From NCBI GenBank assembly GCA_045589295.1, contig JAZNOU010000005.1:114398-178397 (forward strand): a stretch of 64,000 nucleotides of DNA. Direction: 5' to 3'. Below, piece by piece: positions 19,959 through 60,697 of the stretch. The notes beneath the pieces are model-generated. The model was given only the letters and a program-made list of their open reading frames with translations, made no database searches and was not told where the DNA came from. Every line of letters starts with the position of its first letter. Position 1 is the stretch's first letter. The position numbers and the translations under genes are program-made. The DNA comes from Clostridia bacterium. Its GTDB lineage: Bacteria; Bacillota; Clostridia; RGIG6154.

Positions 19959-19999
19959 ATGTAGTTCCTCCTTAGCTAATAAAATAATTTTATTAAAAA

Positions 20000-21521: not shown

Positions 21522-21546
21522 TATAACCAGCTCCTTCTATGTGTGG

Positions 21547-22341
21547 TTATATCCAATCTTCAAGTTCAGATACCATCCCTTTTTCAAAGGATTCCTTTTG
21601 AAAAGGGATGGTTTTTTGTTCTGTCTCATTTTCTTTGATTGCTGTAACCTTTAACTCTACTTTTACAGAATCATATTTATTTTCCATAATGACATTTCCA
21701 TAGGAGTCAATTATACCAATCCCATTTTCCCCCTCTGTGATATTGCAAACATTTTGACGGTTAATAACAATCGGATGGTTAAATATTTCCTTATACACCT
21801 TATATTCACCCTCTTGTGGATACAGATATGTACTATATCTTGCATCATAAAATACAGGTCCTTTTTCCGTATTTCCACAAAAGCAAAAACAAGACTCACT
21901 ATATGAGGTATATTCCTTTTTATAAATCTCTTTGCCCAATTCTCCGTATAAGATATACTGATACTTTTCATCTTTGCAATATAAAAACGGAGTTTCAACA
22001 ACAATGTCAACAAAATCCCGTGCTGTGTTTGTTGCTGAATTATAGTATCTTACTTTTTGGTCGTTACTGAAAATCAAATCATGACCGAATGTATCCAGCG
22101 TGTCATACTCACTTTCAGCAATAAAACATACTTTGTCTGTTTCTATTCTGACCGCTCCGATTTTACCTTTTTTATGTATAACAAATACGTTCTTTCCATA
22201 CATAAAAATATTATCATACTCAATTGGTAAAATACATAAGTTGTCAGTAAGGTTTTTAATTCCCATCATCCCGTTATCAGATATAACTTTAATACTGTTT
22301 AAAACTGATTTTTCAAACACATTCCTTCTGCTAAATAACAT
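21547..22341 (-). CDS. WG-repeat-like protein
   Basis: GMMGIKN...ILPIEYDNI, GKIGAV...ESEYD, GIGIIDSYGNVIMENKYD repeats. Confidence 0.6.
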   Translation of the reverse strand: MLFSRRNVFEKSVLNSIKVISDNGMMGIKNLTDNLCILPIEYDNIFMYGKNVFVIHKKGKIGAVRIETDKVCFIAESEYDTLDTFGHDLIFSNDQKVRYYNSATNTARDFVDIVVETPFLYCKDEKYQYILYGELGKEIYKKEYTSYSESCFCFCGNTEKGPVFYDARYSTYLYPQEGEYKVYKEIFNHPIVINRQNVCNITEGENGIGIIDSYGNVIMENKYDSVKVELKVTAIKENETEQKTIPFQKESFEKGMVSELEDWI

Positions 22342-22492
22342 AATATCCTCCCATTTTTATAATTGTAACTGCCATTTTTATAAATATAAACCAAGAGCAC
22401 ATAAATGTACATAGCCAAGTTACAAAAAAGACCGCCTATGTAATTATACTTTTAACTACATAGAAAGTCTTGGACATTTTGTCCACTTTTGT

Positions 22493-24037: not shown

Positions 24038-24108
24038 TTTAGACAACTCCTTGCATATTTCGACAATGTATACTATAATAATTATAGTAAATTCAGGGAG
24101 GATTGTCA

Positions 24109-24528
24109 ATGTATACAATAACAGATGAATTACTAAAAGAACTCAAAAACGCATCAGATATAGAATCGTTTTTCAAATCTCATGAGAATCAGTTTATAAA
24201 CGAAACAACATCAAGTTATCTAAATAAAATGCTCGAATTAAGAAATATAAATATTTCTGCTATTGCAAAAAATTCAGGTACAGGTGAGTATGTATATAAG
24301 ATATTCAGAGGTGACAGAACCGCTTCCCGTGATATTTTAATTTCTATCGCTTTTAGTATGAAATTATCTTTAGAAGAAACTCAGTTGCTACTTCGAATTT
24401 CTAAATTCGCCATACTTGATTCACGTAACAAAAGAGATAGTATTATAATATATGGTCTAACTCACAATTTAACTGTTTTTCAAGCAGATGATTTGTTAGA
24501 AGAACAAAATATGACAACATTAAATTGA
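24109..24528 (+). CDS. XRE-like HTH regulator, divergent from kinase
   Basis: ISAIAKNSG...YVYKIFRGDRTASRDILISIAF...LSLEETQLLL. Confidence 0.75.
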   Translation: MYTITDELLKELKNASDIESFFKSHENQFINETTSSYLNKMLELRNINISAIAKNSGTGEYVYKIFRGDRTASRDILISIAFSMKLSLEETQLLLRISKFAILDSRNKRDSIIIYGLTHNLTVFQADDLLEEQNMTTLN

Positions 24529-24541
24529 TTTATACAAATGC

Positions 24542-25117
24542 TCATAAATTTACCGCATTGTAACAATCTATAATCACTTTTTGAGTAATACCTATATATC
24601 TTAATGTAATTGCACTCGATGAATGATTTAGGAGTTTTTGAAGTGTTTCTAATGGTACATTATTAATGTATCTGTGATATGCCATAGTCTTTCTTAATGT
24701 ATGTGTACCGAAATTACCTTTAATCCCTAAATCCTTTGTAAGTGTTTTAATGATATGATGCAGAGGTCTTACTCCTAAATGACTACCCTTTCGACTTTTA
24801 AATAAAAAATCCTCCATATCATAGTTTGCTAAAGAGTTAAGATATACCTGTATCGCACCTTTAGCATTTTTATTTAATGCGAAATTCCTTGTTTTTCCTG
24901 TTTTCTGTTCTTTAATAGTTACTGTATCAAATATTATATTTCCATCTGTAACATCATTAATTTTTAATGATAATAAATCTCCTGCTCTTAATCCAACATT
25001 GATTCCAACAACAAATATACAGTAATCTCTCTTATTTTCTTTTCCGTATAAATATTGCTTGATTTTGTTAATATCTCTTGTGTTTTTAATTGGTTCAACC
25101 TCTTTTGGTAATGTCAT
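24542..25117 (-). CDS. small tyrosine recombinase (catalytic domain only)
   Basis: GLRAGD, KEQKTGK, HTLRKT, LLNHSS...TLRYIG. Confidence 0.92.
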   Translation of the reverse strand: MTLPKEVEPIKNTRDINKIKQYLYGKENKRDYCIFVVGINVGLRAGDLLSLKINDVTDGNIIFDTVTIKEQKTGKTRNFALNKNAKGAIQVYLNSLANYDMEDFLFKSRKGSHLGVRPLHHIIKTLTKDLGIKGNFGTHTLRKTMAYHRYINNVPLETLQKLLNHSSSAITLRYIGITQKVIIDCYNAVNL

Positions 25118-25429
25118 ATGTTTAATCTCCTTTTTCAGTTGTAACTTAATTTTTTACAATTATATATCGCGTGTGTGAAAAAGTACACCGTTTTTCACAT
25201 AAAGAAAAATATTACCTTTTGCCCATTTAATGAACATAAGGTAATATTCAAAACTTGTTTTTATTAAATTTTAAACCTCACATTTCCCGAAACCATTACA
25301 AGAGTTAAGTTTGAGATGTTTGTGTGAATGATACCTTTTGTTAAAAGGTATTATTCGTTGACAATTAAACATTGAAAGAATCTAAAATTTTTGATATACT
25401 TTATACATAAATGTATAGGAGGAATTTGC

Positions 25430-26347
25430 TTGAATCTTTTCATAATTGGAAACGGATTTGATTTGGCTCACAACTTGCCAACACAATATATGAACTTTAG
25501 AGAATATTTAGAGGAAAGAGATTGGAACTTTCTTATGATGTTAGAAGAAACATATGGATTTTGTTCAGATAGCAACATAGAATATCTAAAAGAATATTTA
25601 TGGCAGAATTTTGAAACCAATTTGTCCTACATCAATGAAACAGAAATAATAGAACTCGGCTCACATATTGACTTAGGATTAGAAGGTGGTGATTTTGGAG
25701 TAGAAGAAACGTTAGATTATTATTGGGAAAACCAATATGGCTACATAAAAAAATTAAATGAATATTTATATTCTTGGATAAATCAAATTGATATTAATGT
25801 TGATAGAAAGACAAATTTTATTAACGAAGAAAACTATGATTTATTCATAAATTTTAATTATACACTATTGTTAGAAGAACTATATAATATAGATTCATAT
25901 GATATTCTCCATATTCACGGCTCCGTATATCCTCACGACACACCGCCGATTATAGGACACGGAGATTATAAGAAAATAGAAGAAATGTCATCAAAAGTTT
26001 CTGAATATTCAAATGTAAATATGGAAAAGGAAACGAGCATATATAATGCTGTTCGTAATTTTTATGAAAGAACTTTTAAGGATGTAAAACACTACATACG
26101 GTGGAACGAGAATTTTTTTGTTAGATTAAAGGAAATTGAACAAGTGTTTATTGTAGGTCATTCCTTTGGTGATGTGGATTTACCCTACTTTAAAGAGATA
26201 TTGTCTTATGTTCCTAAAAACGCACAATGGAATGTATATTATTATAAACCTGAAGAAGAATTATTTTTTAAAGATAAACTGATTGAAATTGGAATTAATG
26301 AAGAGAATATAAAGATGTATCATACATCAACATTTTTTAATATGTAA
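25430..26347 (+). CDS. abiH: AbiH-family abortive infection protein (SIR2-like fold)
   Basis: LFIIGNGFDLAHNLPT, FNYT, HIHG, IIGHG, VGHSFGDVDLPYF; TTG start after AGGAGG. Confidence 0.88.
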   Translation: MNLFIIGNGFDLAHNLPTQYMNFREYLEERDWNFLMMLEETYGFCSDSNIEYLKEYLWQNFETNLSYINETEIIELGSHIDLGLEGGDFGVEETLDYYWENQYGYIKKLNEYLYSWINQIDINVDRKTNFINEENYDLFINFNYTLLLEELYNIDSYDILHIHGSVYPHDTPPIIGHGDYKKIEEMSSKVSEYSNVNMEKETSIYNAVRNFYERTFKDVKHYIRWNENFFVRLKEIEQVFIVGHSFGDVDLPYFKEILSYVPKNAQWNVYYYKPEEELFFKDKLIEIGINEENIKMYHTSTFFNM

Positions 26348-26436
26348 ACTATTATTATATGCAGCTAACGGATTATTACATTTGGAATTATATAACTAAA
26401 GATATGAATAAAAACTCTATCAAGGAGGGAGTACAT

Positions 26437-28065
26437 ATGAATAAAATTGAAAACACATATTATCAAAAATCTAATATCGAATATCTTAAAAATATATACG
26501 GAAAAGAACTTTGGGTTCAAGTCTCTGGACGCAGAGATTTAAATGGAGCCGTTGCAAGCTTTTGGACAGGATTAGTTTATTTGGATGATTTAGATAAAAT
26601 TACTCAAAAATCAGATTGGGAGGCTCATATTGGAACACAGGCTCCTGGTTTTGTCGAATATGGTAATGGTGATATAGAGTATGAGAAAATCTCAGCTTCG
26701 AATATTTATTGTGAACACATTGTAAACTATAGAGATTTTTATGGCATAAAGCCTGAATATGTTGAAGTTGTCGATGAATTTAGACTCCTTAACAATTTAT
26801 ATCATGATTTCCAATCTAACACACTTTACGCAATTAAGGATAATGGAATTTGTGATGAAGTAGTTAAAATTGAAAATAATACGAATGTTTTTATAAAGCT
26901 AAAGTATTTAATCAATTATGCAACGGCTAAACAAATGGCTTTACTACTGTTTTTTGATATTGACCAGCAAATTTCTGGAACATTGGAAAAAAATCAATTA
27001 AAAAAATTTTCTGATAGTCATATTGGTAAAGATATTGTATACAGCATTTGGGGAGATGAAATGGGAGGGAGTAATTATGTATATAGTATCTTAATGGGTA
27101 AAAAGATAATTATGCCTAAACCAATTAATGAATGTGGTTATTGGCCATATGAGAAAGAATATGAATATTTAGACTTTATTATTGGAAATGATGAATACGG
27201 TGAAAACAAAACATTTACATCTAATCCTAACAAATTAGCCAACTACTTCGGTGCAAATCCAGATGCCCCTCACTATTTAACACCTGTTTTCTTTAATAAA
27301 GAAGTATTGCAAAAATACTTATCTTCTGATATTTATAGCATAGAAGATGGTTACTTAAGATGTCGCGGACTTTGGGGCTTAAGAATGGATAACCATCATA
27401 AAGACTATGTAGTTGTTTACTTGGGAGATTTAGGCAAAGAATTACCTTATGAAGAACAACACCATTGGAAAAATTATAATATTGTTTCTGACGATACGAT
27501 TAGTAATGCAAAATTCAAAAGAGATTTCTTAGGAATTCCAAGCAACGCTGAAATTTCTGATTTAAAATTCAAAGCAGATTTTTCATGTTTTCAAAAACAA
27601 TGGTACAATAAATTTGGATGGTATTTATTTTTACCGCTTACCTCTGATGATGAATATAATTTTAGTAAAATACATATTCCAATCGTGAATACACAAGATG
27701 AATTTGACCATTTAGTATTGTCATTAGTAAAAACAATTATTGATTCACTTAACGAAAAAGAAATAAAAAAATTAGTGAAAGACACATTGGATAAAAAGAG
27801 TGGTCAAGAATTAAAAGGAAGTATATCTAAACTTGAAAGATGGTTTGAAGAAAGTAATCTTACAGACTATATTGAACACATAGAATTTTTAAGGAATTTG
27901 CAAAATCTACGTTCTGCCGGAACAGGACATCGAAAAGGAAGCAACTATGATAAAATTTCAAAAGAGTTTGATTTAGATACTGAAAGTTACACAAATGTAT
28001 TTGATTCGATATTAGAAAAGACAAATATGTTTTTAAGTTACTTAACCAATACCTTTTTAGCATAA
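26437..28065 (+). CDS. hypothetical protein with C-terminal HEPN-like motif
   Basis: LRNLQNLRSAGTGHRKG (R-x5-H) in helical C-terminus; RBS AAGGAGG. Confidence 0.55.
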   Translation: MNKIENTYYQKSNIEYLKNIYGKELWVQVSGRRDLNGAVASFWTGLVYLDDLDKITQKSDWEAHIGTQAPGFVEYGNGDIEYEKISASNIYCEHIVNYRDFYGIKPEYVEVVDEFRLLNNLYHDFQSNTLYAIKDNGICDEVVKIENNTNVFIKLKYLINYATAKQMALLLFFDIDQQISGTLEKNQLKKFSDSHIGKDIVYSIWGDEMGGSNYVYSILMGKKIIMPKPINECGYWPYEKEYEYLDFIIGNDEYGENKTFTSNPNKLANYFGANPDAPHYLTPVFFNKEVLQKYLSSDIYSIEDGYLRCRGLWGLRMDNHHKDYVVVYLGDLGKELPYEEQHHWKNYNIVSDDTISNAKFKRDFLGIPSNAEISDLKFKADFSCFQKQWYNKFGWYLFLPLTSDDEYNFSKIHIPIVNTQDEFDHLVLSLVKTIIDSLNEKEIKKLVKDTLDKKSGQELKGSISKLERWFEESNLTDYIEHIEFLRNLQNLRSAGTGHRKGSNYDKISKEFDLDTESYTNVFDSILEKTNMFLSYLTNTFLA

Positions 28066-28083
28066 ATTTTAAAGGAGATACAA

Positions 28084-28656
28084 ATGGAATTTTATGAAAT
28101 TATGATTAACCTATCTATAGGAATAACGGGCGGTATATTTTCTAGTATTATTGTTTCACGTATCTTTTTAATACATTCTTCGCATTCAGAACAATTAGCA
28201 AGAGTGCAAGAGCATTTTGAAAATACTTACAGATTGAGTGGAACATTACTTTTTTATATGTATGCATTTCAAAAAGATGAGAATAATTTTGACGATGATA
28301 CTATTAATCGCTTTAACGACGCATTGCTAAAAGATATACACGAAGTATCAAAACAAGAATGCGAAAAATTTCGGTATATGATTTTCGATGACTTAGAAAT
28401 AGAATTATATAAAATCGCTGTTAATTTAAACGATTTAATGGAAGGAACACTATCATTAAATAAAGTCGATATATCTATAGTAAGAAAACTTCATAAAGAC
28501 TTATTTGATATACAAGATAGATTTAAAAAGTATAAGATAACTAACAACAAGCATTTTGTGACAAAAATAAAAAAGGACAAAATATTACGAATACTCATTC
28601 TTGCTTTGGTTATAATACTCATTTCAACAATAATATCTTGTATATGTGCTAAATAG
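28084..28656 (+). CDS. hypothetical protein with N- and C-terminal TM helices
   Basis: hydrophobic ends, charged helical middle; RBS AAGGAG. Confidence 0.7.
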   Translation: MEFYEIMINLSIGITGGIFSSIIVSRIFLIHSSHSEQLARVQEHFENTYRLSGTLLFYMYAFQKDENNFDDDTINRFNDALLKDIHEVSKQECEKFRYMIFDDLEIELYKIAVNLNDLMEGTLSLNKVDISIVRKLHKDLFDIQDRFKKYKITNNKHFVTKIKKDKILRILILALVIILISTIISCICAK

Positions 28657-37665: not shown

Positions 37666-37730
37666 CTTTTTGGTGCTCGAAACCGGAATCGAACCGGTAC
37701 GGGGATCACTCCCCACGGGATTTTAAGTCC
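37666..37730 (-). repeat. att direct repeat: duplicated 3' part of tRNA-Leu(TAA)
   Basis: 65 bp identical to 60604-60668; extends from CCA end through the anticodon loop. Confidence 0.95.
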
Positions 37731-38112: not shown

Positions 38113-38457
38113 ATGAATGAGAGAATTATTAAGCCGGGTGTAATTCACAGAATATTTGAATTAACCAAAAGCAGAAAACAAAATCATAGTTTAGAAACAA
38201 TTAATGAGATAATAACAGCTTTTCTGGATGTGATTGAAAATTCTATATCAATAGGAAGTGCTGTTGTTCTTAATGGATATATGGTAATTGAACCTCGCCA
38301 TAGACCGCAGAAGAAAGTTTACTGTGCCGGTAAAGGAAAGGAAATAACTATCCCTGAACAGTATAGGGCGTATATAAAACCCGGCTCAAAACTTGCAACC
38401 GCAGCTAAACGATACACGGAAAAGAAAATAGGAGAAATGCATGGACACTATAAATAA
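38113..38457 (+). CDS. HU/IHF-like DNA-binding protein
   Basis: IITAFLDVI...VVLNGYMVIEPRHRPQKK...GKEITIPEQYRAYIKPGSKL. Confidence 0.85.
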   Translation: MNERIIKPGVIHRIFELTKSRKQNHSLETINEIITAFLDVIENSISIGSAVVLNGYMVIEPRHRPQKKVYCAGKGKEITIPEQYRAYIKPGSKLATAAKRYTEKKIGEMHGHYK

Positions 38458-38863
38458 GAATGAATTGATTGATAGAATATCAGCAAAGCTCAACAAAGAG
38501 CGTATTGTAGTTGGTGGTAATAAATACGCCTACAAGAAAAAATACCACTTGAAATACTCTGAAGCTATTATAAGAAAAGTAGTAGATGCCTTTTGGAGTG
38601 TTGTAGCCGACACTATAGCTGACGGAGATAAAATATCAATTCAAAATTACATAACGATATACCCAAAGTACACAACTAATGGTAACATCAATTCCTTTTG
38701 CGTAAAAACTAAGGCAAAGGAAAAGCTAAAAGAAGCTTGTAGGATATTGAACACCGGTAAAAAAATACCTGATGATCTTCAGCCAATACCACCGTCTGAT
38801 ATTTTTCATGAAACATTTGCTTTTTGGGATGAGAAAGATGAGGCACAGATAGTAGAATATTAA
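38441..38863 (+). CDS. divergent HU-like protein with shortened beta arms
   Basis: INKNELIDRIS...VVDAFWSVVADTIADGDKISIQNY...KLKEAC. Confidence 0.7.
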   Translation: MDTINKNELIDRISAKLNKERIVVGGNKYAYKKKYHLKYSEAIIRKVVDAFWSVVADTIADGDKISIQNYITIYPKYTTNGNINSFCVKTKAKEKLKEACRILNTGKKIPDDLQPIPPSDIFHETFAFWDEKDEAQIVEY

Positions 38864-39034
38864 AAAACATAACAAATCATTAAATGGTGAGACTACAGCC
38901 TTAAAGTGTAGGGACTCCCATCTGCCCGGAGTAAAAAGAAAGTTTGCAGAACCATATTCAGTCATAGATGACTTCACCGCTTCGGTGAGGTCTATTTTTA
39001 TGCCTTGATTGTGGGTTGTTATAAAGGAGGACGA

Positions 39035-40360
39035 ATGAATGACAATAAAACATATAAAGAGGGGCAAGATTGGTTAAGTGACATCCTCACAAATGAGGTA
39101 ACAAAAATTTGTAACAAGTGTGGCATGATACTACCAATAGATAATTTTAGAATTGTTAAAGGACAATTTCACAACCCCTACTATTTAGGACACTGCAAAA
39201 AGTGTGAATATAAATACCAAAGGGATTATCTAAAAGAAAAGAACAAGATAACACTTTCGGATAATGTAGAAATACTCATAAAAAGAAAGTTCAAAACCAT
39301 AAATCCTTATAGAATATTAGAAATAAACAAGACATCTATAGTGCCTATCGGCACAGACGAAGTTTTTGTTAAGTTAATGGATTATAAGAATGTGTGGCTT
39401 TCTAATTATGGACGTATTATAAGAAGTACGCCAAGTGGTAAATACAAGTTATTACAAGGTAGGCGTGACAAATACGGAGTGCTCTATTACACTTTGCCAA
39501 AGTTAAAACTTATTGACGGCGAATGGGGTTGTGTAAACACAAGCCTACGTGCTGCAAAAGCTGTTGTTGATGAATTTATAGTTAATCCTGACAAAGCAAA
39601 CAATATCTTTATTTGGCACAGTGGCTATAAAAAAGAGGATTGTTATTACCGAAACTTATATCCATTAAACCAAAATCAATATAAGGTCGTGAAGCAAAGC
39701 TTTACTGAAACGGGAGAAAATTCAGAAGATTTCATTATCAAAGTAATGAACGAGCCTAAATATCAACCTGATAATTGGAGCAAACAATGTTTAGAGCCTG
39801 TATTGTGCGGCATAGGATATCACGGCACTCTATACGAAAATAGCAATGTCGAATCGTATTTAAGGTGGTCTGATATGATGAATCGTTGTTATAATAAAAA
39901 ATTTCATACAAGACAGCCACAATATAAAGAATGTGTTGTATGTGAAGAATGGCATAATTACAGTAATTTCAAGGTGTGGTATGATGAGAATAAAGTTCCC
40001 GGAATGGCGTTTGATTTAGACAAAGACATCGTATTTAAAGGCAATAAAGAATACAATCCTGCAACGGTTTCTTTTGTTCCGCACATTATTAATACACTAT
40101 TTTTAAATGGCAAAAGCAATAGAGGTAGTTTGCCGTTGGGAGTGAATTTCGATAAATCTCATAATGACTATAGGGCACAAATGAACGTTATGGGAAAAAT
40201 AAAGAAATTAGGTTATTTTAACAACGCCATAGACGCATTTAACAAATATAAGGAATATAAAGAAACATTTATTAAAAACATGGCTGAGCAATATAAGGCT
40301 CAGATACCATATAAAACGTACATAGCAATGTTAAATTGGGAAGTGGAAACCACCGACTAA
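39035..40360 (+). CDS. phage HNH-type endonuclease-like protein with NUMOD4-like and AP2 domains
   Basis: CNKC..CKKC, WLSNYGRI, WSDMMNRCY...VCEEWHNYSNF...LDKD..GNKEY, LPLGV...YRAQ...LGYF. Confidence 0.75.
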   Translation: MNDNKTYKEGQDWLSDILTNEVTKICNKCGMILPIDNFRIVKGQFHNPYYLGHCKKCEYKYQRDYLKEKNKITLSDNVEILIKRKFKTINPYRILEINKTSIVPIGTDEVFVKLMDYKNVWLSNYGRIIRSTPSGKYKLLQGRRDKYGVLYYTLPKLKLIDGEWGCVNTSLRAAKAVVDEFIVNPDKANNIFIWHSGYKKEDCYYRNLYPLNQNQYKVVKQSFTETGENSEDFIIKVMNEPKYQPDNWSKQCLEPVLCGIGYHGTLYENSNVESYLRWSDMMNRCYNKKFHTRQPQYKECVVCEEWHNYSNFKVWYDENKVPGMAFDLDKDIVFKGNKEYNPATVSFVPHIINTLFLNGKSNRGSLPLGVNFDKSHNDYRAQMNVMGKIKKLGYFNNAIDAFNKYKEYKETFIKNMAEQYKAQIPYKTYIAMLNWEVETTD

Positions 40361-40441: not shown

Positions 40442-40894
40442 ATGAGCATACAGCAACAGCTACAAAAAATTACAAGCCGGATAGATTTAAAGTTAAACCG
40501 AGCAGCACAAGAAATTATGCTAAAGACTAAAGAACAACTCAAAGAGTCTGTTAATGATATATGGTATTCCACCTACTCACCTACAGATTATATTCGCACA
40601 TACGAAACGATTGATGCGGTTAGTGGTAAGGTGGTAAAAAATAGCAAAGGTAATTACACAATAGAGGTGTATTTTGATGAGAATTTAATGAATTCAAAAT
40701 CAAGCACCTATGGCTGGGGTACACACTCAGGCTTTGATGGTGGAGATTTTAGGAAAGGTCTTATTAGCAGTATTATTCACGGCATGGGTGGTTCTAAAAA
40801 CAATCCCAGGTATGGTGAATCCACCAATGTTATTGAGGTGGTTAAACAAGAAGCAGAAAGATATGCAAATAGCATATTAAGAAAATATTTATAA
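40442..40894 (+). CDS. putative tail completion/neck protein (HK97 gp10-like)
   Basis: WYSTYSPTDYIRTYETIDAV resembles siphophage tail-completion proteins; lies upstream of TMP. Confidence 0.5.
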   Translation: MSIQQQLQKITSRIDLKLNRAAQEIMLKTKEQLKESVNDIWYSTYSPTDYIRTYETIDAVSGKVVKNSKGNYTIEVYFDENLMNSKSSTYGWGTHSGFDGGDFRKGLISSIIHGMGGSKNNPRYGESTNVIEVVKQEAERYANSILRKYL

Positions 40895-40918
40895 AAAATT
40901 TAGGAGGATTTAATAGTT

Positions 40919-41410
40919 ATGAATAAAAGAATTGATTACAAAGGAACAGATATTACAGAGATTTATAAGTTGGCTCTTATTGGTGCTGAGTTTGTAACAG
41001 AAAAGAATGAAAATGGTATCGCACTTGTTAATTCACTTAATAAAGAGCTTTATACAAAGACCGTTTTGCTTGCAAGGTTTTTAAAAGTCGTTGACATTCC
41101 CGAAGACAGAGTTATGAACTTAGATCAGTACAAAGACAATGACTTTACTGTTACAAGCTTTTCCTGTGGTAGAATGACAAGAAAATTAAGAGCAGATTAT
41201 GATTTGTTCACATCTATGCTTAATGACGAAATAAGAAATTGTCTTGAAAGAGAAAACGATGTTAACATCCGTATTAATGAGATGATGGCAGTAGACTTAT
41301 CTCCTGAAAACCTTGAAATTATGCAGAAAAATGCCAAAGAGTTTACATCACATTTAAAGAAGATTACCAAACTTATTGAAAAGGCAGATACTACAAAAGT
41401 TAAAGCGTAA
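40919..41410 (+). CDS. hypothetical protein, possible tail assembly chaperone
   Basis: 163 aa helical protein immediately upstream of TMP; RBS AGGAGG. Confidence 0.45.
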   Translation: MNKRIDYKGTDITEIYKLALIGAEFVTEKNENGIALVNSLNKELYTKTVLLARFLKVVDIPEDRVMNLDQYKDNDFTVTSFSCGRMTRKLRADYDLFTSMLNDEIRNCLERENDVNIRINEMMAVDLSPENLEIMQKNAKEFTSHLKKITKLIEKADTTKVKA

Positions 41411-41421
41411 GGAGGTAGTCT

Positions 41422-44400
41422 ATGGCTAATAGTGATGATAGAATTCTTTTAAATTTAGTCTTAAATGAGGCAACAGTTAGCGCTGTTGAAGGCAGGATTC
41501 GTAATCTTGTAAATAGACTAAATAATACAAGTATCAGTTTGAATATCAATGGGCGAAATCTTGATAATATCGTAAATCGCCTTAACGATATACAACAGCG
41601 AATGCAGACGATAAATTCTACGCCTGTAAATATCAATGCTAATCTTACATCTGCGCAACAACAGCACCGCCTTGAGACGGAACGTATGCGTGTTGCACAG
41701 CAGTTAGAGTTATCAAGGCAAAGAACATTACAGACCGAAAACCAGGCTATTTCCGCTCTTGCACAGCAAAATAGAACACTGACTGTTAATAATAATGTTA
41801 CTCACCAAATTGAACAAAACACCCAAAACATAGGTAACAATATGAATGTTGCCGGAGGTCATGCAAGAGATTTTGTTGACTACCTTTCGGACGGCGTTAG
41901 ATACTTGGTTACATACAGAAGTCTTTATGCTATTATGAATCAAATCGGTGAAGCCTTTTCTGAAATGAAATCCGTCGATTCTGCCGCAATTCAGGTACGC
42001 AAAACAACAGGTATGTCAAAAGACGAAATTGAAGCAATTAAGAAAGCATCTTATGGTGTTGCAACAGAATATGGTAGGTCGGCAAGTGAATATCTTGAAT
42101 CTGTATCTGAGTTTGCACGTGCCGGATATAAACAACATAGTACAGAACTTGGAAAATTAAGTTTGCTCACACAAAACGTCGGCGATGTATCAGCAGAATC
42201 AGCCGATAAGCTTTTGATAGCGGTAGATGCTGCTTATCAGTTAGAAGGGAATGTGGCAGAGCTTACAAATGTCATAAATGCCTTAAATAACATTGCAAAT
42301 AAGAATCCTACTTCTATGCAAAAGATGGCAGACGGTTTACAGGTGTCAGCATCTATGGCAAAAACCGCAGGTGTGGATATTTCTGAATTAACCGCACTAA
42401 TTGGTACAGGTACGGCGGTCACTCAGCGTGAAGGCTCTGAAATTTCGAGAGCTTTAAGAACAATTTTGCTTAATATCAGGCAAGTAAAGGGTGAGCTTGA
42501 TGATGGTACTATTATTGATGAAGAATCTATTGCAAAAGCAGAAGCAGCCTTAAAAGGTGTTGGCATTTCAACAAAAGAAGTCGTTAATGGTGTGCGAGAA
42601 CTAAGAAATCCTATGGAAGTTCTTGATGAACTTTCCGATAAGTGGCATACTTTGGGAACTGAAGCAAAAAGTGTTCTTACAGAAAGTATAGCAAATAAGA
42701 GACAAGCTAATGTTCTTTCTGGTATTCTCGACAATTGGTCTATGGTAGAGAAAATGCAAAGTGAGTATTTTAACTCTGCTAATAGTGCCATTGAAGAAAA
42801 TATCTTATATCTTGAAGGATGGGAAGCGAAAAGCAAGGTAGTAAGTGCAAAGTGGACGGAATACATCTCAAATCTTGCAGATGCGAAAGTCATTACAGGA
42901 ACATTGGATGCTTTGTATGGATTGCTCACGGCACTTGATACCCCTATCGGAAGAATAGCAACTCAAATCGTACTTGTAAATACAGCATTGGCAGTTACGG
43001 GTAGATTATGGCAGCAAATCCGAGCAAGAAGTATTGTTGCAGATATTCTCTCTATGGGTGTAGCTGAAAGAAGTCTTGGAACGGCTATAGGACTTGTAAC
43101 AGAACATTTAGGTAGACAAGCATTGGCTTGGGCTTCATCACCTTTCGGTGTAGCTACAATAGCTATCTCAGGTATATCTCTACTTATTTCAGGTATCTCA
43201 AAATACAATGAAAAACTTGAAGAATCTCGCCAAGAGATGATTGAGACCGGTAAAGAAGCAGCACAGTTAACTAAAGATCTAGACGGACTTGTTGAAGAAT
43301 ATCGCAAACTTGGCACAGATGGAAAGTTTGATAATTCTGACAGAGAGCAAGCAAAGAATATACAAGAACAAATAAATGAGTTGCTTGGGGATGAAGTTGG
43401 CAATATAAACCTTGCCAACGGTAAATATGAAGACCAGTTAAAACTACTTCGTGATATACAATATGAAAAAGCAAAAGAAAAGAATTACGACTTAGAAACA
43501 GCATATACATCTTCAAAAGAAAGTTTACTTTATAAGGCTGATAATGTAGGTGTTGGTGCTTGGGCTGCTGATTCTGAAGTAGAGGCTATTAAAAACTTAA
43601 AGTCCGAGTTAAAAGATATGGATAAGTATTTCCATGCTTATGAAGCAACTGGAAATGGTGGTGCTAATTCAGCATTCTTTAAAGTTGATACTTCTTCTGC
43701 TGAGGCAGTTGTTGAGTCTTACGAAAAGATGGTTGAGGTAAAAAGAGTTCTTGAAGATTCACACCATGACGAAATACAGGCTGGTGGAGCATTGGAGGAC
43801 TTTTACAACAACCTTAAAGACGAGATAAATGATTTATCAGATGCGGTTACGAAATACAAAGATGCTATGAGTAACTACAACGTTAACCAAGCTGTAATAA
43901 TGTTTAATGAGCAAACTTTCGAAGGTCTAGCTGAAGAATTTGATGGTTTAACATTTGCTACTGTAAAAACTGAAGATCAGTTGCTTGCTTTAATGACAGC
44001 AATGATAAATCTTGATGGTGTTTCCGATGATATAAAATACAATATCATTGGTCTTGCAAGAACAAATTATCCAGAAATGTCAAAAGCTATAGATGACGCA
44101 ACGGCTAAATTTGTAAGAGGCGAAATTGCAAGTGGAAATTTCAAAGGTAGTTTAGCATCTGTCGCATCTCAGTGCGGAATGGCAACAAAAGACCTTGCCA
44201 CTATGATTCTCAAGATGATAAATCTTAATGAGACCAAACTTAATCTTAGCCAGCAGATTTCTGAGATTCTGAAATTAAGGGCTGCTATGGATATGTCTGA
44301 TATTAAAGGGTCAGACATATATGATGCTGGTGGCAAATGGATTGGGAAAGATAAGTACCTTCTTGACGGCAAAGAATATACCTACAACGAAGCCATACGT

Positions 44401-46497
44401 AAAGTTGCATACGACAAGACGATGGAAGAAATCAACAAACTTGGCAATGGCAATACCAGTGGTAACACTCCTCCATACACTTCTTCTGACGACAAATCCG
44501 GCTCCGACAAAAACGAAGCACTTGACAATTACCTCAAAGACGCAGAAAGTCGTTACAAAATTCATCAAGATGAAGCTAAATACATCAATGACTTACAATG
44601 GGCTTCTGAGAACCTAACCAAGACCGACAAAGAACGTCTTGAAATAGCGGGTAAAATCAACGAAGCATATCGCGACCTTGCAGACAATCGTATTAAAGAT
44701 TTAGAGCATCAAAATGAGTTATTACTTGCACAGGGTAAAACCGAGTATGATTTAATATCTAATTATAGACAGATGCAAGATGTTCTTCACGCAGAAGCCG
44801 AGAGACTTCGTGGTCAGGGCTATGATGACAACTCTAATGAAATTCAAGACCTTCAGAGCAAATGGCTTGACTACGATAAAAAGATTCTTGATGCAGACCT
44901 TGAAAACTCTAAGAAATGGATTGAGGCTCGTAAGAATTATGGCGATTGGAGCAGTTGGGGCGACAGCGAAGTTGAGGCTTGGGGACGTGTATTAAAGCGC
45001 CTCAGAGAAGAATACCCCAACGCGGTAAAAGAGATTGCTGAGATAGAAGCCGAATATCGCGACGCTGTTTTAGACGGCATAAGCAGATATTACGACGACC
45101 AAATTGAGCAACTCGAAAAACAAAACGAGAAAATCAAAGAGAATTGGGAACTTCAGAAATCTCAATGGCAATCACTTCTTACACTTCAAGAAAAATACTT
45201 TGAAAATGCTAACTTTGTAGAAGATACTCAAGCAGACATCAGAAAAGAACTCGATGCTTCTATGACGATGTATAAGTATCTTGATGAAGATACCAGAGTG
45301 TTATTATTCAACGAAGATGATTATATCGCTTTGAGTAACGCTTTAGAAAAATTAGATGCAGAAAACGAAGCTTTAAAAGATGCATATAAAAGTGATATTT
45401 GGTCTGCAACCGCAGAAACTATTGCAGAGGTTACTCAGCATTATGAACATCAGTTTGAGTTAAAACAAAAAGAGTATGAAATCTTAAGAGCAACGTTAGA
45501 TGTTGAGAAGAAACGTACTGAACTTAACAATGTTTTAAATGAACGCAATACTAAGATGTTTATTAATGGTCAGTGGCAATGGGTTGCTAACGCAGAGGAT
45601 GTTAAGAATGCTCAGGAGGCTTTAGCTGATGCAGAACTTGAGGCTGCAAAAACAATTAGGGATAAAGAGCAAACTTTGGCAAATCAAGAACTTGAAGCAC
45701 ATATTTCAAGACTTGAAACTCAAGAAAAATTCCTTGACAAAGAGCTTAAAGACGCGCAGGATAAATGGGATGAAATTCAAGAATCATTAGAAGACCCTGT
45801 TGCTAATATTACAGATATTCTTAAAGATGTTGCAGAAAACGGAACTCCGCAACTTAAGAGTATTATTGATGATATTTCAACTAATTTGAATAGATTGAAT
45901 AAGAGTCTCAATATATCAACAACAGTGCCCACTGGTTCATCAAGTTCAGGTAGTTCGGGTGGTTCGTCATCTACAGGCTCGTCATGGGAAGGTTCTAATG
46001 CTCAAAAAGAATTTTATAAATCACAAGACTATGCAGCGGGCATACAAGACGCTCTGTCTAAAGGCGATGTTGGCACTGCACTTGCAGGAAATGCATTAAG
46101 AAACGACAAGATTGACAAGCTTGGCTTAGACCCGAGTTTGAAATGGTCGGATAGTGATATCATAAACGGCAAAGTGTATGATAGTGGCGGTGTTGCAAGT
46201 GGTAAAGGCTTACTTGCTAAAGCCGTAGACGATGAAGAAATTGTACTTCCTCCCCACCTTACAAAACTTGTTCTTAGTCCTGAACATAATGACAATTTTA
46301 ATAACTTAGTGAAGGGCTTGGAGTGCTTCTATAACTTCCCTAATGTTAATACAACTACATTACCGCCATTTGTTCAAAAAACAAGCAATGTAACTTACGA
46401 CAATAGGACATATAATAATATCAAAGGGATAACATTAAGTCCACAAGAGAGTGAAGCACTTTCTTCGGTACTCAGCAGAATTATTCCTAATCATTAA
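41422..46497 (+). CDS. phage tail tape measure protein (TP901-like domain)
   Basis: VRKTTGMS...FARAGY...NVGDVSAE...IANKNPTS...ELTALIGT...EISRALRTI core, long coiled coils, C-terminal YDSGG...EIVLP. Confidence 0.92.
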   Translation: MANSDDRILLNLVLNEATVSAVEGRIRNLVNRLNNTSISLNINGRNLDNIVNRLNDIQQRMQTINSTPVNINANLTSAQQQHRLETERMRVAQQLELSRQRTLQTENQAISALAQQNRTLTVNNNVTHQIEQNTQNIGNNMNVAGGHARDFVDYLSDGVRYLVTYRSLYAIMNQIGEAFSEMKSVDSAAIQVRKTTGMSKDEIEAIKKASYGVATEYGRSASEYLESVSEFARAGYKQHSTELGKLSLLTQNVGDVSAESADKLLIAVDAAYQLEGNVAELTNVINALNNIANKNPTSMQKMADGLQVSASMAKTAGVDISELTALIGTGTAVTQREGSEISRALRTILLNIRQVKGELDDGTIIDEESIAKAEAALKGVGISTKEVVNGVRELRNPMEVLDELSDKWHTLGTEAKSVLTESIANKRQANVLSGILDNWSMVEKMQSEYFNSANSAIEENILYLEGWEAKSKVVSAKWTEYISNLADAKVITGTLDALYGLLTALDTPIGRIATQIVLVNTALAVTGRLWQQIRARSIVADILSMGVAERSLGTAIGLVTEHLGRQALAWASSPFGVATIAISGISLLISGISKYNEKLEESRQEMIETGKEAAQLTKDLDGLVEEYRKLGTDGKFDNSDREQAKNIQEQINELLGDEVGNINLANGKYEDQLKLLRDIQYEKAKEKNYDLETAYTSSKESLLYKADNVGVGAWAADSEVEAIKNLKSELKDMDKYFHAYEATGNGGANSAFFKVDTSSAEAVVESYEKMVEVKRVLEDSHHDEIQAGGALEDFYNNLKDEINDLSDAVTKYKDAMSNYNVNQAVIMFNEQTFEGLAEEFDGLTFATVKTEDQLLALMTAMINLDGVSDDIKYNIIGLARTNYPEMSKAIDDATAKFVRGEIASGNFKGSLASVASQCGMATKDLATMILKMINLNETKLNLSQQISEILKLRAAMDMSDIKGSDIYDAGGKWIGKDKYLLDGKEYTYNEAIRKVAYDKTMEEINKLGNGNTSGNTPPYTSSDDKSGSDKNEALDNYLKDAESRYKIHQDEAKYINDLQWASENLTKTDKERLEIAGKINEAYRDLADNRIKDLEHQNELLLAQGKTEYDLISNYRQMQDVLHAEAERLRGQGYDDNSNEIQDLQSKWLDYDKKILDADLENSKKWIEARKNYGDWSSWGDSEVEAWGRVLKRLREEYPNAVKEIAEIEAEYRDAVLDGISRYYDDQIEQLEKQNEKIKENWELQKSQWQSLLTLQEKYFENANFVEDTQADIRKELDASMTMYKYLDEDTRVLLFNEDDYIALSNALEKLDAENEALKDAYKSDIWSATAETIAEVTQHYEHQFELKQKEYEILRATLDVEKKRTELNNVLNERNTKMFINGQWQWVANAEDVKNAQEALADAELEAAKTIRDKEQTLANQELEAHISRLETQEKFLDKELKDAQDKWDEIQESLEDPVANITDILKDVAENGTPQLKSIIDDISTNLNRLNKSLNISTTVPTGSSSSGSSGGSSSTGSSWEGSNAQKEFYKSQDYAAGIQDALSKGDVGTALAGNALRNDKIDKLGLDPSLKWSDSDIINGKVYDSGGVASGKGLLAKAVDDEEIVLPPHLTKLVLSPEHNDNFNNLVKGLECFYNFPNVNTTTLPPFVQKTSNVTYDNRTYNNIKGITLSPQESEALSSVLSRIIPNH

Positions 46498-46506
46498 AAT
46501 GAGCAC

Positions 46507-46528
46507 AGGGAGCCTAAAAGGCTCCCTA
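46507..46528 (+). terminator. hairpin after TMP
   Basis: AGGGAGCC-taaaa-GGCTCCCT. Confidence 0.7.
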
Positions 46529-46600
46529 TTACAATATAAAAAGAAAATTGAAAATTTTGTCACCTTATGATATAATATAATACCAAAAAGAGGTGACAAT

Positions 46601-52066: not shown

Positions 52067-52639
52067 ATGGTTTATGGATATTGTAGAGTAAGTACAAAAG
52101 GACAGTTAGATGGAAACAGTATTGAGGAACAAACACAAACAATTAAATGTAGATATAGGGATGTGGAAATAATTATAGAATCGTATTCAGGAGCAAAAGA
52201 CAGACCTATATTTAATAGTCTGTTGGAAAAACTAAAATCAGATGATATTTTAGTGGTTACAAAGCTTGACCGCTTCTGTAGAACTACAAAAGAGGGATTG
52301 ACATATATTGACAATCTTATGAATAAAGGTGTACGGATTCATATTTTAAATATGGGGTTGATTGAAGATACACCTATGGGAAGACTTATAATTACAAATC
52401 TGTTAGCCTTTGCTGAGTTTGAAAGAGCAATGATAATAGAGAGAACGCAAGGCGGTAAAGCTATTGCAAAAAATAATCCTGATTTTAGAGAAGGTAGACC
52501 AAACAAGTTCGGGAAAGAACAGATAAACCTTGCCATGCGTTTATTGGAAAACCACACATATAAGGAAGTTGAGAGTATGACCGGAATAAGTAAAAGTACT
52601 TTAATCAGAGCAAAAAGAAAAATGGATATCCTTAACTGA
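52067..52639 (+). CDS. small serine resolvase/invertase with C-terminal HTH
   Basis: [42 protein letters not shown]; upstream IR TCAAAAC-N6-GTTTTGA (51961-51980). Confidence 0.93.
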
Positions 52640-54906: not shown

Positions 54907-56142
54907 ATGCAAGATTTAAACAAAACAATAACAGTAATAGATAGCATAATGGGTTCAGGAAAGACGGAATGGAGCATACATCATATAAACGATAATTGTC
55001 TTGATAACTTTCTGTACATAACACCGTTTTTGACGGAAGTAGAAAGAATTCTAAAAAAGACCACCAGAAACTTTAAGCAACCCATAAACAAAGGTGATGG
55101 AAAATTAAGCTCAATCAATGAGTTGTTGGCTTGTCAGTATGACATAGCCTCTACACATGAATTATTCAAGCATTTAGATGAAGAGAGTCGGGCAAATATT
55201 AAAGCTGGACATTATACCCTTATATTAGATGAAGTGCTGAATGTCATAGTACCATATGACGATGTTAAAAAAGACGATATGCGACTTCTGCAAGATAGCG
55301 GAGTTGTTACCATAGACGATGAAGGATATATTATATGGAACGAAGACAAACTTGACTATGACACCAAATACAATGAAATAAAGCTATTAGCCGATAATAA
55401 AAGTCTTTTATACGTAAATCAAAAATTATTGTTATGGAAGTATCCACCTGAAATATTTTCATTGTTTGATAAAGTGTATATACTCACCTACTTATTTGAA
55501 GCAAGCATATTAAAAAATTATTTTGACCTATACAACATAAAATATGAGCTAAAAAGCATCAAGAAAACTGACGATGAATACAACATTGTTGATTACTTTG
55601 TACCCGATACATCAATGTACATAAATAAAATCAACATCTTGCAAGGTAAGCTTAACGAGAATATATATCAAAAACAAAATGGACTATCTGTGACTTGGTT
55701 TAACTCAAAAATCAACAAAGAGAAGATTGCACAGTTAGGAAGAAATGTGAAGAACTATTTCGGAAACATACTACAGGCAAAGTCAGAAACAATAATGTGG
55801 ACAACCTTTAAGGATTACAAGCCCAAGTTGAAAGGTAAAGGATATACTAATCAATTTGTAAGTTGTAATTGCCGCTCCACCAACGATTATATTGACTGCT
55901 ATAATTTAGCATACTGCGTAAACATCTATCTACATCCGGCAGTAACACAATTCTTTAGGCAGAGAAACATTCAACTAGATGAAGATTTATATGCGCTATC
56001 AGAGATGATTCAATGGATATGGAGAAGCAGAATCCGTAAGGGTGAAAACATTAACATCTATATCCCGTCCGCAAGAATGAGAAATCTTCTCAATGCATGG
56101 TTAAAAATGAGCTTTTTATATCAAACTCAATTAGTATCTTAG
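54907..56142 (+). CDS. SF2 (DExH-like) helicase / origin-binding-like replication protein
   Basis: Walker A DSIMGSGKT, YITPFLTEV, STHELF, ILDEV, QWIWRSRIRKG. Confidence 0.8.
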   Translation: MQDLNKTITVIDSIMGSGKTEWSIHHINDNCLDNFLYITPFLTEVERILKKTTRNFKQPINKGDGKLSSINELLACQYDIASTHELFKHLDEESRANIKAGHYTLILDEVLNVIVPYDDVKKDDMRLLQDSGVVTIDDEGYIIWNEDKLDYDTKYNEIKLLADNKSLLYVNQKLLLWKYPPEIFSLFDKVYILTYLFEASILKNYFDLYNIKYELKSIKKTDDEYNIVDYFVPDTSMYINKINILQGKLNENIYQKQNGLSVTWFNSKINKEKIAQLGRNVKNYFGNILQAKSETIMWTTFKDYKPKLKGKGYTNQFVSCNCRSTNDYIDCYNLAYCVNIYLHPAVTQFFRQRNIQLDEDLYALSEMIQWIWRSRIRKGENINIYIPSARMRNLLNAWLKMSFLYQTQLVS

Positions 56143-59341: not shown

Positions 59342-60496
59342 ATGAAAGCATATTTGCGAGAAAAAAGGAATGCAAAAACATATTATTGTATTTTAAAGTG
59401 GACCGATGAGAACGGAACACCACAAACAAAAGAGGTTACAACAGGTATCACGATAAAAGGCAATAATAAAAGATTAGCAAAACAAAAGGTGGAAGAAATA
59501 AGAAAGGAGTATGAGAATAAAATTGAGGTGCAAAGAATTGTACCTTGTGATAAAATGTCATTTGATGAATATTTACTCTCTTGGCTAGAAAAGCAGAAAA
59601 GTTTTTTAAAGCCAACGACATACTATGGCTACGAAGGTGTCATAAATAAGCACATTATCCCCTACTTTAAACCTCTAAAAGTATCATTGTCTGATTTGAC
59701 TTCTACACATATACAAAGTTATTACAATAAAAAATTAGAGGAAGGGTTAAGTGCAAATACGGTTAAGCACCATCATGCCAATATTCGAAAAGCTCTGCAA
59801 GAGGCTCTTAGACATAATCTTGTTCCTTGTAATATGGCAGATAGAACAACACTGCCTAGTATTATAAAGTATAAACCTAAAGTGTATAATAAAGCACAAG
59901 TGTTGGAGCTTCTTAAAGCTATAAAGAATACACCACTCGAAAGTGTAGTTATGATATGTATGCACTACGCTCTACGCCGTGGGGAGGTTTGCGGTTTGCG
60001 ATGGAGTGATATTGATTTTGAAAATCGTATCATGTATATACAAAATACAAGAACTTCAGCAAAAACAGAAATATTTCAACAAGGTGCAAAAACGGAAAGT
60101 AGTATACGTCAATATCCACTAAGTGACATGATGTTAAATTTTTTGCTTGACTTACAGGCAAAACAAAAGAAAAATAAATTGTTCTTTGGAACCGGATACA
60201 TAGAAAGTGGATTTTTGTGTACGTGGGATGATGGAAAACCTTTAGGTGTTAGTTATGTTTCTCATGCGTTCGCAACCTTATTAAAAAACAACGGATTACC
60301 ACACATAAGGTTTCATGATATTCGGCACACGGTGGCGACGAATCTTTTAGATAACGGAATAGACTTAAAAATCATTCAAGAATACTTAGGGCATTCAACA
60401 ATGGCTACTACGGCAAATTTTTATTTACATCCTGATATCAAACAAAAAGCAAAGGCACTGAATGTCATGAACGAACTGATTTATAACGAAGCATAA
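59342..60496 (+). CDS. tyrosine integrase (ICEBs1/Tn916-like)
   Basis: ALRRGEVCGL, KT, RFHDIRH, YLGHS...FYLH; adjacent to tRNA-Leu att. Confidence 0.95.
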   Translation: MKAYLREKRNAKTYYCILKWTDENGTPQTKEVTTGITIKGNNKRLAKQKVEEIRKEYENKIEVQRIVPCDKMSFDEYLLSWLEKQKSFLKPTTYYGYEGVINKHIIPYFKPLKVSLSDLTSTHIQSYYNKKLEEGLSANTVKHHHANIRKALQEALRHNLVPCNMADRTTLPSIIKYKPKVYNKAQVLELLKAIKNTPLESVVMICMHYALRRGEVCGLRWSDIDFENRIMYIQNTRTSAKTEIFQQGAKTESSIRQYPLSDMMLNFLLDLQAKQKKNKLFFGTGYIESGFLCTWDDGKPLGVSYVSHAFATLLKNNGLPHIRFHDIRHTVATNLLDNGIDLKIIQEYLGHSTMATTANFYLHPDIKQKAKALNVMNELIYNEA

Positions 60497-60517: not shown

Positions 60518-60608
60518 AAGAGATTTATCAGCACAAAGAGCATTAGCATAAATGTATTTGAAAAATAAAAAAACGACCCAAAACACTAGGTTTTAAGCCG
60601 TTTCTTTT

Positions 60609-60697
60609 TGGTGCTCGAAACCGGAATCGAACCGGTACGGGGATCACTCCCCACGGGATTTTAAGTCCCGGGCGTCTGCCAGTTCCGCCACTCGAGC
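60609..60697 (-). tRNA. tRNA-Leu(TAA)
   Basis: GCTCGAG acceptor, CGGGA-CT-TAA-AA-TCCCG anticodon arm, long variable arm, GGTTCGATTCC, CCA. Confidence 0.96.

Follow-up and report, generated by a model that had tools for sequence, protein, structure and literature searches.

We analyzed a 64,000-nucleotide stretch of the genome of a Clostridia bacterium (lineage RGIG6154; GenBank assembly GCA_045589295.1, contig JAZNOU010000005.1, positions 114,398 to 178,397), called the window below, which holds a 23-kb integrated island with a trio of adjacent genes for a tail tape measure protein (TMP; P0003) and two small proteins (P0001 and P0002). We give about even chances to the reading that this trio is the tail-interior module of an integrative, helper-dependent, satellite-like element in a tRNA-Leu gene and serves to build chimeric tails. 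Within this reading, we infer that the element depends on a helper, is packaged, and has its products incorporated into tails, and likewise what the mosaic structure of the TMP means. The island belongs to an undescribed family of tRNA-integrating islands of gut Clostridia, whose constant feature is a protein resembling a tail completion protein (TCP), a small protein, and a giant TMP. A narrow literature search for satellites of this kind listed nothing that looked relevant by its title and the opening of its abstract.

Layout of the trio

The trio and the hairpin that follows it are placed in the window as follows.

40442-40894, plus strand: P0001 open reading frame (ORF), 150 amino acids (aa), pI 9.0
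40919-41410, plus strand: P0002 ORF, 163 aa, pI 6.0
41422-46497, plus strand: P0003 (TMP) ORF, 1691 aa, pI 4.75
46505-46529: hairpin after the trio, 11-bp stem with 6 GC pairs, 7 nt past the TMP stop codon

An initial annotation of this DNA had described three tightly spaced genes with strong ribosome-binding sites, closed by a hairpin, with no tube gene before them and no distal-tail gene after them. The spacing and the binding sites are as described: the intergenic gaps are 24 nt (P0001/P0002) and 11 nt (P0002/TMP), and the Shine-Dalgarno sequences GGGAGG (P0001), AGGAGG (P0002), and AAGGAGG (TMP) lie 4 to 11 nt 5' of the ATG codons. The lack of tube and distal-tail genes on either side also holds, as far as Pfam and PHROGs reach. 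A stem-loop is indeed present 3' of the TMP gene, but its T-run is confined to the minus-strand side, and the hairpin is therefore not a canonical plus-strand intrinsic terminator. The top promoter-like site in the region (46548-46576, 11/12) lies directly past it. The arrangement is not a product of chance, since the same genes stand in the same order in seven of the eight related loci that we fetched.

Upstream, the 81-nt gap between P0001 and the preceding HNH-like gene contains a perfect 11-bp inverted repeat, read by eye (40377-40387/40406-40416, 18-nt loop), which could be a terminator-like or regulatory hairpin.

The tape measure protein

P0003 matched PF10145 (79.1 bits; cutoff, 33.2), TIGR01760 (61.5 bits; cutoff, 28.8), and phrog_4211 (E 1e-70, residues 26 to 1004). 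With all three families matching, the earlier naming of the large gene as a TMP gene is borne out, and P0003 is, by these profile matches, a phage tail tape measure protein of the TP901 type, an identity that we regard as firm. At 0.15 nm per residue, its 1691 aa would correspond to a tail of about 250 nm. It has one clear hydrophobic segment at about residues 571 to 594 (19-residue windows with a Kyte-Doolittle mean above 1.5 start only at 571 to 576). P0003 is the sole PF10145 match in its genome, and its gene is placed outside any tail operon, with no tube, Dit, or Tal family found in the island by Pfam and PHROGs. These two libraries were applied in the window to 24 other ORFs at 36.3 to 60.5 kb, and apart from a weak match of P0001, given below, none of these matched a head, packaging, connector, or tail family. 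The best phage matches of P0003 are in large Bacillus and Brevibacillus siphophages, and many homologues are 60-85% identical across the N-terminal 40-56% of the protein.

We measured mosaicism as identity in 100-residue bins against the TMP of the window. Residues 1 to 600 are 66-100% identical to the TMPs of other islands and the remainder mostly 9-27%; the first 35 residues are near-invariant between islands. Two of the related loci, L004 and L008, illustrate the drop in identity to P0003.

L004 TMP: residues 1-600, 80-100%; residues 601-1000, 16-27%; last 200 residues, 25%
L008 TMP: residues 1-600, 66-80%; residues 601-1000, 9-20%; last 200 residues, 14-18%

By these identities the island TMP is a mosaic with a break near residue 600, joining a conserved, presumptively head-proximal part to a divergent tip end. 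A complex prediction for TMP residues 1 to 670 with P0001 and P0002, in which P0002 was scored as the partner, gave 0.21 against a mark of 0.32; made without controls, it counts neither way.

The two small proteins

P0001 had no match in our local Pfam library, which lacks PF27376, and only weak PHROG matches, including phrog_7299 ("virion structural protein," E 4.5e-5). The PF27376 label (YomN, Pfam 38.1) is precomputed on 14 of the 36 clusters of P0001 homologues, and P0001 scored 0.98 against YomN clusters in Atlas. Phage SPbeta (NC_001884) has yomO and yomN in its tail region, a few genes upstream of yomI, its tape measure gene. With a profile built from P0001 and its homologues, we found an ORF just upstream of the TMP gene in phage contigs from IMG/VR, with E 7e-8 in the 122-kb contig L033 and E 2e-7 in L031 and L032. 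Because a P0001-like ORF comes shortly before the TMP gene in these large contigs, P0001 and the TMP are a linked pair in real phages. Searches of 50,697 phage records with P0001 and P0002 (tblastn) gave no match, and neither did the P0001 profile against PDB sequences at E ≤10.

These viral contigs show two further arrangements. At 7427-16364 of L033, the TMP is split into ORFs of 641 and 1255 aa by an HNH/D5-like ORF, and the P0001-like gene is separated from the TMP gene by a transposase gene. This tail region seems to be a target of selfish nucleases; the islands, too, have an HNH-like gene beside the trio. In L031 and L032 (about 9600-13700; viral contigs of 29% GC), tblastn placed a TMP at 10001-11191 where no long ORF is open under translation table 11, perhaps because these contigs use another genetic code or because the gene is broken.

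Modeled by AlphaFold2 with low confidence (predicted local distance difference test score [pLDDT], 64), P0001 consists of helices at residues 3-41 and 47-59, a beta hairpin (60-66/72-78), short helices, and a C-terminal helix (130-149). A VIA comparison with 48,161 PDB chains ranked 9mu2 chain P first (Z 5.3, root mean square deviation 4.6, 104 of 109 residues aligned), followed by rows with Z 5.1 and 4.7. From its length and residue range (7-115), we take this chain to be gp51, the tail completion protein of phage 80alpha. Matches of the model to BFVD were weak (best E 6.6e-4); four "HK97 gp10 family" entries appeared at E 0.01-0.2, and the names "neck" and "tail component" recurred. The "completion-like" label first given to this gene is weakly supported: it agrees with the YomN family label and with the top structural match, the 80alpha TCP, the latter at a Z score of just 5.3 on a model of pLDDT 64. 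We weakly assign P0001 to the YomN family as a protein predicted to resemble a TCP.

The P0002 gene is directly upstream of the TMP gene (stop at 41410, TMP start at 41422). Relatives of P0002 are few, 33 among 1.84 billion representatives, and alignment of the family by hhalign with YomO, YomK, and YomJ of SPbeta gave no similarity. Its structural model is poor (predicted TM score, 0.26), and VIA returned generic coiled-coil matches only, to residues 81 to 163. A -1 frameshift product, as in tail assembly chaperones of the lambda gpG/gpGT type, is not indicated: no plus-strand ORF of at least 50 aa overlaps the 3' end of P0002, and the TMP gene starts just 11 nt beyond it, slippery sites not having been searched. 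The initial annotation had named P0002 a putative chaperone. Its position upstream of the TMP gene agrees with this, but no chaperone family or fold was matched; P0002 probably helps the TMP to fold or assemble.

The island and its attachment sites

The window is chromosomal, with arg genes, a P-type ATPase gene, an aldolase gene, and tRNA genes, and belongs to a genome assembly of 1.54 Mb that is 97% complete. The 65-bp repeat that bounds the island is the 3' part of tRNA-Leu(taa), and the island spans 37666-60668 (23.0 kb). Its recognizable features besides the trio are listed here.

37666-37730: left attachment (att) site, left copy of a perfect 65-bp direct repeat, exact match to 60604-60668
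38113-38457 and 38441-38863, plus strand: two overlapping HU/IHF-like DNA-binding genes (PF00216, E 5e-11 and 9e-6; phrog_379)
39005-40360, plus strand: HNH-like endonuclease gene, 451 aa, immediately upstream of the trio (phrog_953, E 9e-56; phrog_374, E 6e-39)
52067-52639, plus strand: serine invertase/resolvase (PF00239, E 6e-34; phrog_125), part of the shared island backbone
54907-56142, plus strand: P-loop helicase-like protein, 411 aa (phrog_2467, E 1e-73; weak ResIII match)
59342-60496, plus strand: tyrosine integrase near the right end of the island (PF00589, E 1.5e-31; phrog_1, E 2e-73)
60604-60668: right att site, right copy of the 65-bp repeat, in tRNA-Leu(taa) (60609-60697, minus strand)

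The HNH-like protein has an endonuclease VII-like N terminus and no Pfam match. Further island content comprises helix-turn-helix (HTH) proteins, a DUF4062 protein, and about 14 ORFs without any family. Pfam and PHROGs identified no capsid, terminase, portal, connector, tube, Dit, Tal, baseplate, or lysis family in the island. PADLOC, run on 24 island proteins, returned a single weak PDC-S04 match, to a 92-aa ORF, and no defense family in or beside the trio. Sequence searches of PDB with two helicase-like proteins gave no match.

The island thus has an integrase with att sites, a small size (23.0 kb), and an incomplete set of virion and lysis genes, all traits of satellites. The satellite framing of the initial annotation fits this context of intact att sites and integrase, no other virion genes, and conserved relatives.

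Related islands and selection on the trio

A scan of one genome per species returned eight loci (L003 to L010) in metagenome-assembled genomes (MAGs) of Clostridia. The trio is present in order at seven of them (L003 to L009), and L010 has a distant TMP only. Across L003 to L009, identities to the window are 65-91% for P0001, 50-87% for P0002, and 69-86% for TMP residues 1 to 670 (42% in L009). None of 60 relatives of the window's genome carries the island TMP.

Two layouts were seen. L003, L004, and L007 run, as the window does, from chromosomal genes through the HU-like and HNH-like genes to the trio; in L006, L008, and L009, a tyrosine integrase gene comes one to five ORFs after the trio, with chromosomal genes beyond it. 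The island of L004 and L041 has a 45-bp tRNA-like repeat and a length of about 30 kb, and that of L040 and L009 a 23-bp repeat and about 23.3 kb; L006 and L008 have no att repeat of at least 15 nt within the sequence examined. The common backbone consists of the HU-like gene, phrog_6244, the invertase, phrog_11900, a phrog_36540 HTH gene, a superfamily 2 (SF2) helicase, and the integrase, and the block of HNH-like gene and trio occurs at varying places within it. Homologues of the HU-like gene mark the left end of the island in L003, L004, and L007 and are also found in L040. In L003, L004, L007, and L009, a homologue of the HNH-like gene is located upstream of the trio, and L006 has fragments of one downstream of it. 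The invertase is 96% identical in L004 and has a homologue in L040. At the place equivalent to the 411-aa gene of the window, other islands have a different SF2 helicase (74% identical between L009 and L004).

Among the 44 and 24 ORFs flanking the trio in these relatives we found no virion family, save one weak TerL match in PHROGs (E 1e-5). We set this match aside because the 503-aa L004 protein that gave it is 74% identical to an L009 protein with ResIII/DEAD matches and helicase motifs. A fecal "Bacteriophage sp." scaffold (MT835723, L001) was likewise rejected as a sister element, being high in GC and having ordinary tail genes after its TMP gene; it carries a P0002-like ORF (E 1e-8) and the only match in phage records to the TMP C terminus (35% over about 107 aa).

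Comparison of the islands also bears on a reading of the island as a complete small virus, with capsid and packaging genes that have diverged beyond recognition. The roughly 14 ORFs without family would give such genes a place, but these ORFs are not conserved across islands. Besides the TMP, the island ORFs longer than 300 aa are those for the HNH-like, helicase-like, DUF4062, and integrase proteins and one 321-aa ORF on the minus strand. There is no room for a set of terminase, portal, and capsid genes, and we consider a complete virus extremely improbable.

We estimated the ratio of nonsynonymous to synonymous substitution rates (dN/dS) by the Nei-Gojobori method across loci, using pairs with finite dS.

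P0001: median dN/dS 0.085 (21 of 28 pairs)
P0002: median dN/dS 0.16 (19 of 21 pairs, L005 left out)
TMP codons 1-670: median dN/dS 0.13 (27 of 28 pairs)

Relative to the window sequence, dS is about 0.8-1.2. Relaxed selection on the TMP had been named at the outset as an observation that would tell against a functional module; it was not seen, and values of 0.085-0.16 indicate purifying selection.

These values bear on a reading in which the island is a decayed prophage or a mosaic, with the trio a leftover piece of a tail operon that has no role in spread. Such decay would account for the presence of only three virion genes, for the derivation of the trio from SPbeta-like phage tail modules, and for the interrupted TMP gene of the relative L007. 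Decay sits poorly, however, with perfect att repeats, an intact integrase, an intact 5-kb ORF, and, where dS is about 1, dN/dS of 0.085-0.16. Seven loci in different MAGs also have this trio with no other virion genes, and independent decay is disfavored because the same three genes would not remain each time. We judge this origin quite unlikely.

The L004 island, from a Congzhengia MAG, carries extra cargo at 18254-20932: a HEPN gene (LA2681-like) and an ArdC-like anti-restriction/metallopeptidase gene. Genes of the ArdC type are common on conjugative elements, and the TMP has a hydrophobic segment; both would suit a mobilizable, conjugative, or other nonvirion element in which the TMP-like protein spans the envelope or pilots DNA. 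Library scans of the window island found no relaxase, coupling protein, or type IV secretion family, the TMP has a canonical TP901 domain, and in contigs of real phages P0001 goes together with TMP genes, all of which makes a nonvirion element very unlikely.

A proposed chimeric tail and what weighs against it

The island encodes its own TMP; in the satellite-like reading, P0001 would cap the TMP N termini and touch the DNA end, and P0002 would aid folding or assembly of the TMP. A helper siphophage, probably a large SPbeta-like one, would give the capsid, portal, terminase, tube, terminator, Dit/Tal hub, and receptor binders. The outcome would be a chimeric tail with lumen content made by the island, as in the pair of Vibrio satellite PLE11 and phage ICP1 discussed below. 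The conserved TMP N terminus, inherited together with P0001 and P0002, would be matched to these partners encoded by the island, and the divergent C terminus would dock into the tail-tip hub of each island's helper. Such a lumen could be exchangeable because work on 80alpha and its satellite SaPI1 reports, in the excerpted account, minimal contacts between the interior (TCP and TMP) and the exterior of the neck.

The same three proteins could instead act mainly in defense: made upon infection, they would poison or mis-size the tails of the invader, and the island need not be packaged. The initial annotation, whose idea of chimeric tails has since been borne out experimentally for PLE11, had also suggested that a private TMP might bypass helper exclusion or poison helper tail assembly; for this island both variants are speculative. 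Tail assembly is a known target of defense, as excerpts of the reports on the Tai systems (PMC11364771) and on Rta of PLE11 (PMC12987554) indicate. The related L004 island has defense or counterdefense cargo (HEPN and ArdC-like), and purifying selection is compatible with any function, defense included. Against this, a complete 1691-aa TMP with a completion-like partner would be a costly decoy, and PADLOC found no defense family in or next to the trio. In PLE11, moreover, the TMP serves to build tails for the satellite itself, and defense is the work of a separate small protein, according to the excerpted text (PMC12987554). We consider a mainly defensive role unlikely.

Several results weigh against a helper-dependent satellite with its own tail interior. 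On the side of the proteins, the TCP assignment of P0001 is weak (pLDDT 64; Z 5.3 versus 5.1 and 4.7 for the next rows), Foldseek of its model against PDB gave nothing at E ≤0.001, and hhalign of its family with SPbeta YomN gave a probability of 4%, with a shared Y-x-Y-x-P-x-x-Y-x-R-T stretch. P0002 matched no Pfam or PHROG family, and 26 of its relatives compared with PHROGs yielded nothing meaningful. One of the eight TMP genes, that of L007 (10001-15247), is interrupted in frame by a stop at codon 92, with the frame open again from 10418, and could be a pseudogene, an assembly error, or a case of recoding. On the side of the element, we recognized no small terminase, pac or cos site, capsid-resizing gene, or helper-sensing regulator in the island, and a hidden function is possible because about 14 of its ORFs have no family. 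A scan of IMG/VR viral contigs by two short peptide patterns, which may miss relatives, found none of P0001 and, for the TMP, only proteins of 34-38% identity in large phage contigs; the collection therefore gives no sign that these islands are packaged. Finally, no helper was identified: a second PF10145 TMP is absent from the genome, at 97% completeness, as are matches to PF05065, PF04860, and PF03354, and the single structural cluster present, on contig C12, has no relation to the island family.

The structural cluster on contig C12

A PF03237 search located this cluster of 14 kb at about 79.4-93.3 kb of contig C12, between holA and rpsO/pnp and with no integrase. It encodes TerL, an SPP1-type portal, a scaffold, a P22-coat-like capsid protein, an adaptor, a completion protein, a 167-aa protein, Dit, a Gp37-like protein, and fibers. 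No gene lies between the 167-aa gene and Dit, either here or in the same-genus genome G002; at that spot, three genomes of other genera have ORFs of 176 and 380 aa, the longer one a coiled-coil ORF, which probably encode a chaperone and a short tape measure. The cluster looks vertically inherited and like a gene transfer agent (GTA), because its capsid gene is present in 13 of 17 genomes of the same family with identity following kinship.

The gap is strikingly complementary to the trio and raises a further reading, in which the island TMP module makes up for chaperone and tape measure genes that the C12 cluster has lost in this genus. The otherwise broad gene set, the retention of the 176- and 380-aa ORFs in other genera, and the island TMP being the only PF10145 match of the genome would suit such a division of labor. 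The island TMP and P0002 are not, however, similar to the native 380- and 176-aa proteins, and the island TMP is more than four times as long as the native tape measure. Nor do the two travel together: a C12-type capsid gene occurs in none of the five other island-bearing genomes, and the island TMP in none of the 60 relatives, yet the cluster is in 13 of 17 same-family genomes. We regard complementation as highly improbable. The same slight likelihood attaches to its extension, in which C12 would supply capsid, tube, and tip and the island the tail interior, re-arming a domesticated GTA-like particle for the island's own transfer.

On the same counts (0 of 5 and 0 of 60), we rejected a phage split between island and cluster as a general explanation. 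The lack of similarity between the island proteins and the 380- and 176-aa proteins native to the cluster, and the commonness of the cluster where there is no island, disfavor a link between the two as well.

A second island in the window

The window holds another low-GC (27-31%) island at 13118-28656, beside tRNA-Pro, with the following genes.

13267-14976, minus strand: large serine recombinase
16149-17009, minus strand: Rep-like gene
22493-24118, minus strand: Ser/Thr kinase
24542-25117, minus strand: short tyrosine recombinase
25391-26347: AbiH, then two genes of no given function

Comparison with known systems

PICIs (phage-inducible chromosomal islands), among them the Staphylococcus aureus pathogenicity islands (SaPIs), share with the Clostridia island a tRNA- or gene-targeted integrase, regulators, a helicase-type replication gene, a small size, and an incomplete virion gene set. 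The backbone of the island (HU-like, serine invertase, phrog_11900, and phrog_36540) differs from the PICI gene set. Unlike PICIs and capsid-forming PICIs (cf-PICIs), the island has no recognizable small terminase, capsid-size redirection genes, or capsid genes.

The large SPbeta-like siphophages (yomO, yomN ... yomI; NC_001884) have the same YomN label and the same TP901/phrog_4211-type TMP as the island. In those phages the genes form part of a complete operon for head and tail, in which Dit and Tal come after the TMP, whereas the island trio stands alone.

For the neck, the closest comparison is 80alpha, whose gp51 is, in the excerpted account, a monomer inside the SaPI1 neck that contacts the DNA end (PDB 9mu2; bioRxiv 10.1101/2024.12.10.627806). 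The P0001 model resembles gp51 in having, in order, a long N-terminal helix, a beta hairpin, a short helix, and a C-terminal helix; however, P0001 has no detectable sequence similarity to gp51, is 35 residues longer, and was modeled with low confidence. According to the same excerpts, the C terminus of the 80alpha TMP (gp56) binds Tal, and a near-invariant N terminus, as in the island TMPs, is what would be expected of a TCP-binding end.

If the satellite-like reading is right, tail piracy would extend to Gram-positive gut anaerobes and to long siphovirus tails, through a module both minimal and different in kind, with only tube-interior parts: a tape measure and a protein joining the TMP to the DNA end. 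The tail lumen would then be an exchangeable unit, and the mosaic TMP, with its conserved head-proximal third and variable tip end, a readable marker of each island's helper. It would also offer a concrete test of how a satellite TMP gets picked over that of the helper. The reading also concerns annotation, in which lone tape measure genes of bacterial genomes are usually dismissed as prophage debris.

Tail piracy has been proposed for EPIPs, satellites of Mycolicibacterium aichiense that depend on a helper, encode a TMP, and have tail lengths differing from those of the helper (PMC12822802). EPIPs are, like the island, small elements with a TMP gene, but they are 11 kb long and have small terminase, adaptor, stopper, scaffold, and capsid genes and a serine integrase (PMC12822802). 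In the island, none of those virion genes was recognized and the integrase is a tyrosine integrase.

Experimental demonstration of tail piracy by a satellite dates, in the excerpted report, only from 2025-26 and concerns PLE11, a Vibrio cholerae satellite of the myovirus ICP1 (PMC12987554). PLE11 has its own TMP, chaperone, and hub protein; its chimeric tails were documented by transmission electron microscopy, western blotting, and mass spectrometry, and its virions hold the PLE TMP and not that of ICP1 (PMC12987554, in excerpt). The legend of Extended Data Fig. 10 of that report maps putative tmp genes in other PLE-like elements and in cf-PICIs. By this partial account, PLE11 differs from the island in its Gram-negative host, its myovirus helper, and a much shorter TMP. 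The modules differ too: TMP, tail assembly chaperone, and baseplate hub in the PLE, versus a TCP-like protein, P0002, and a TMP with no hub gene in the island. The chimeric tails of PLE11 were seen in particles, whereas those of the Clostridia island are a prediction. What the PLEs, so far as excerpted, share with it is the overall design: integrative elements without capsid or tube genes that carry their own TMP together with small tail-assembly partners.

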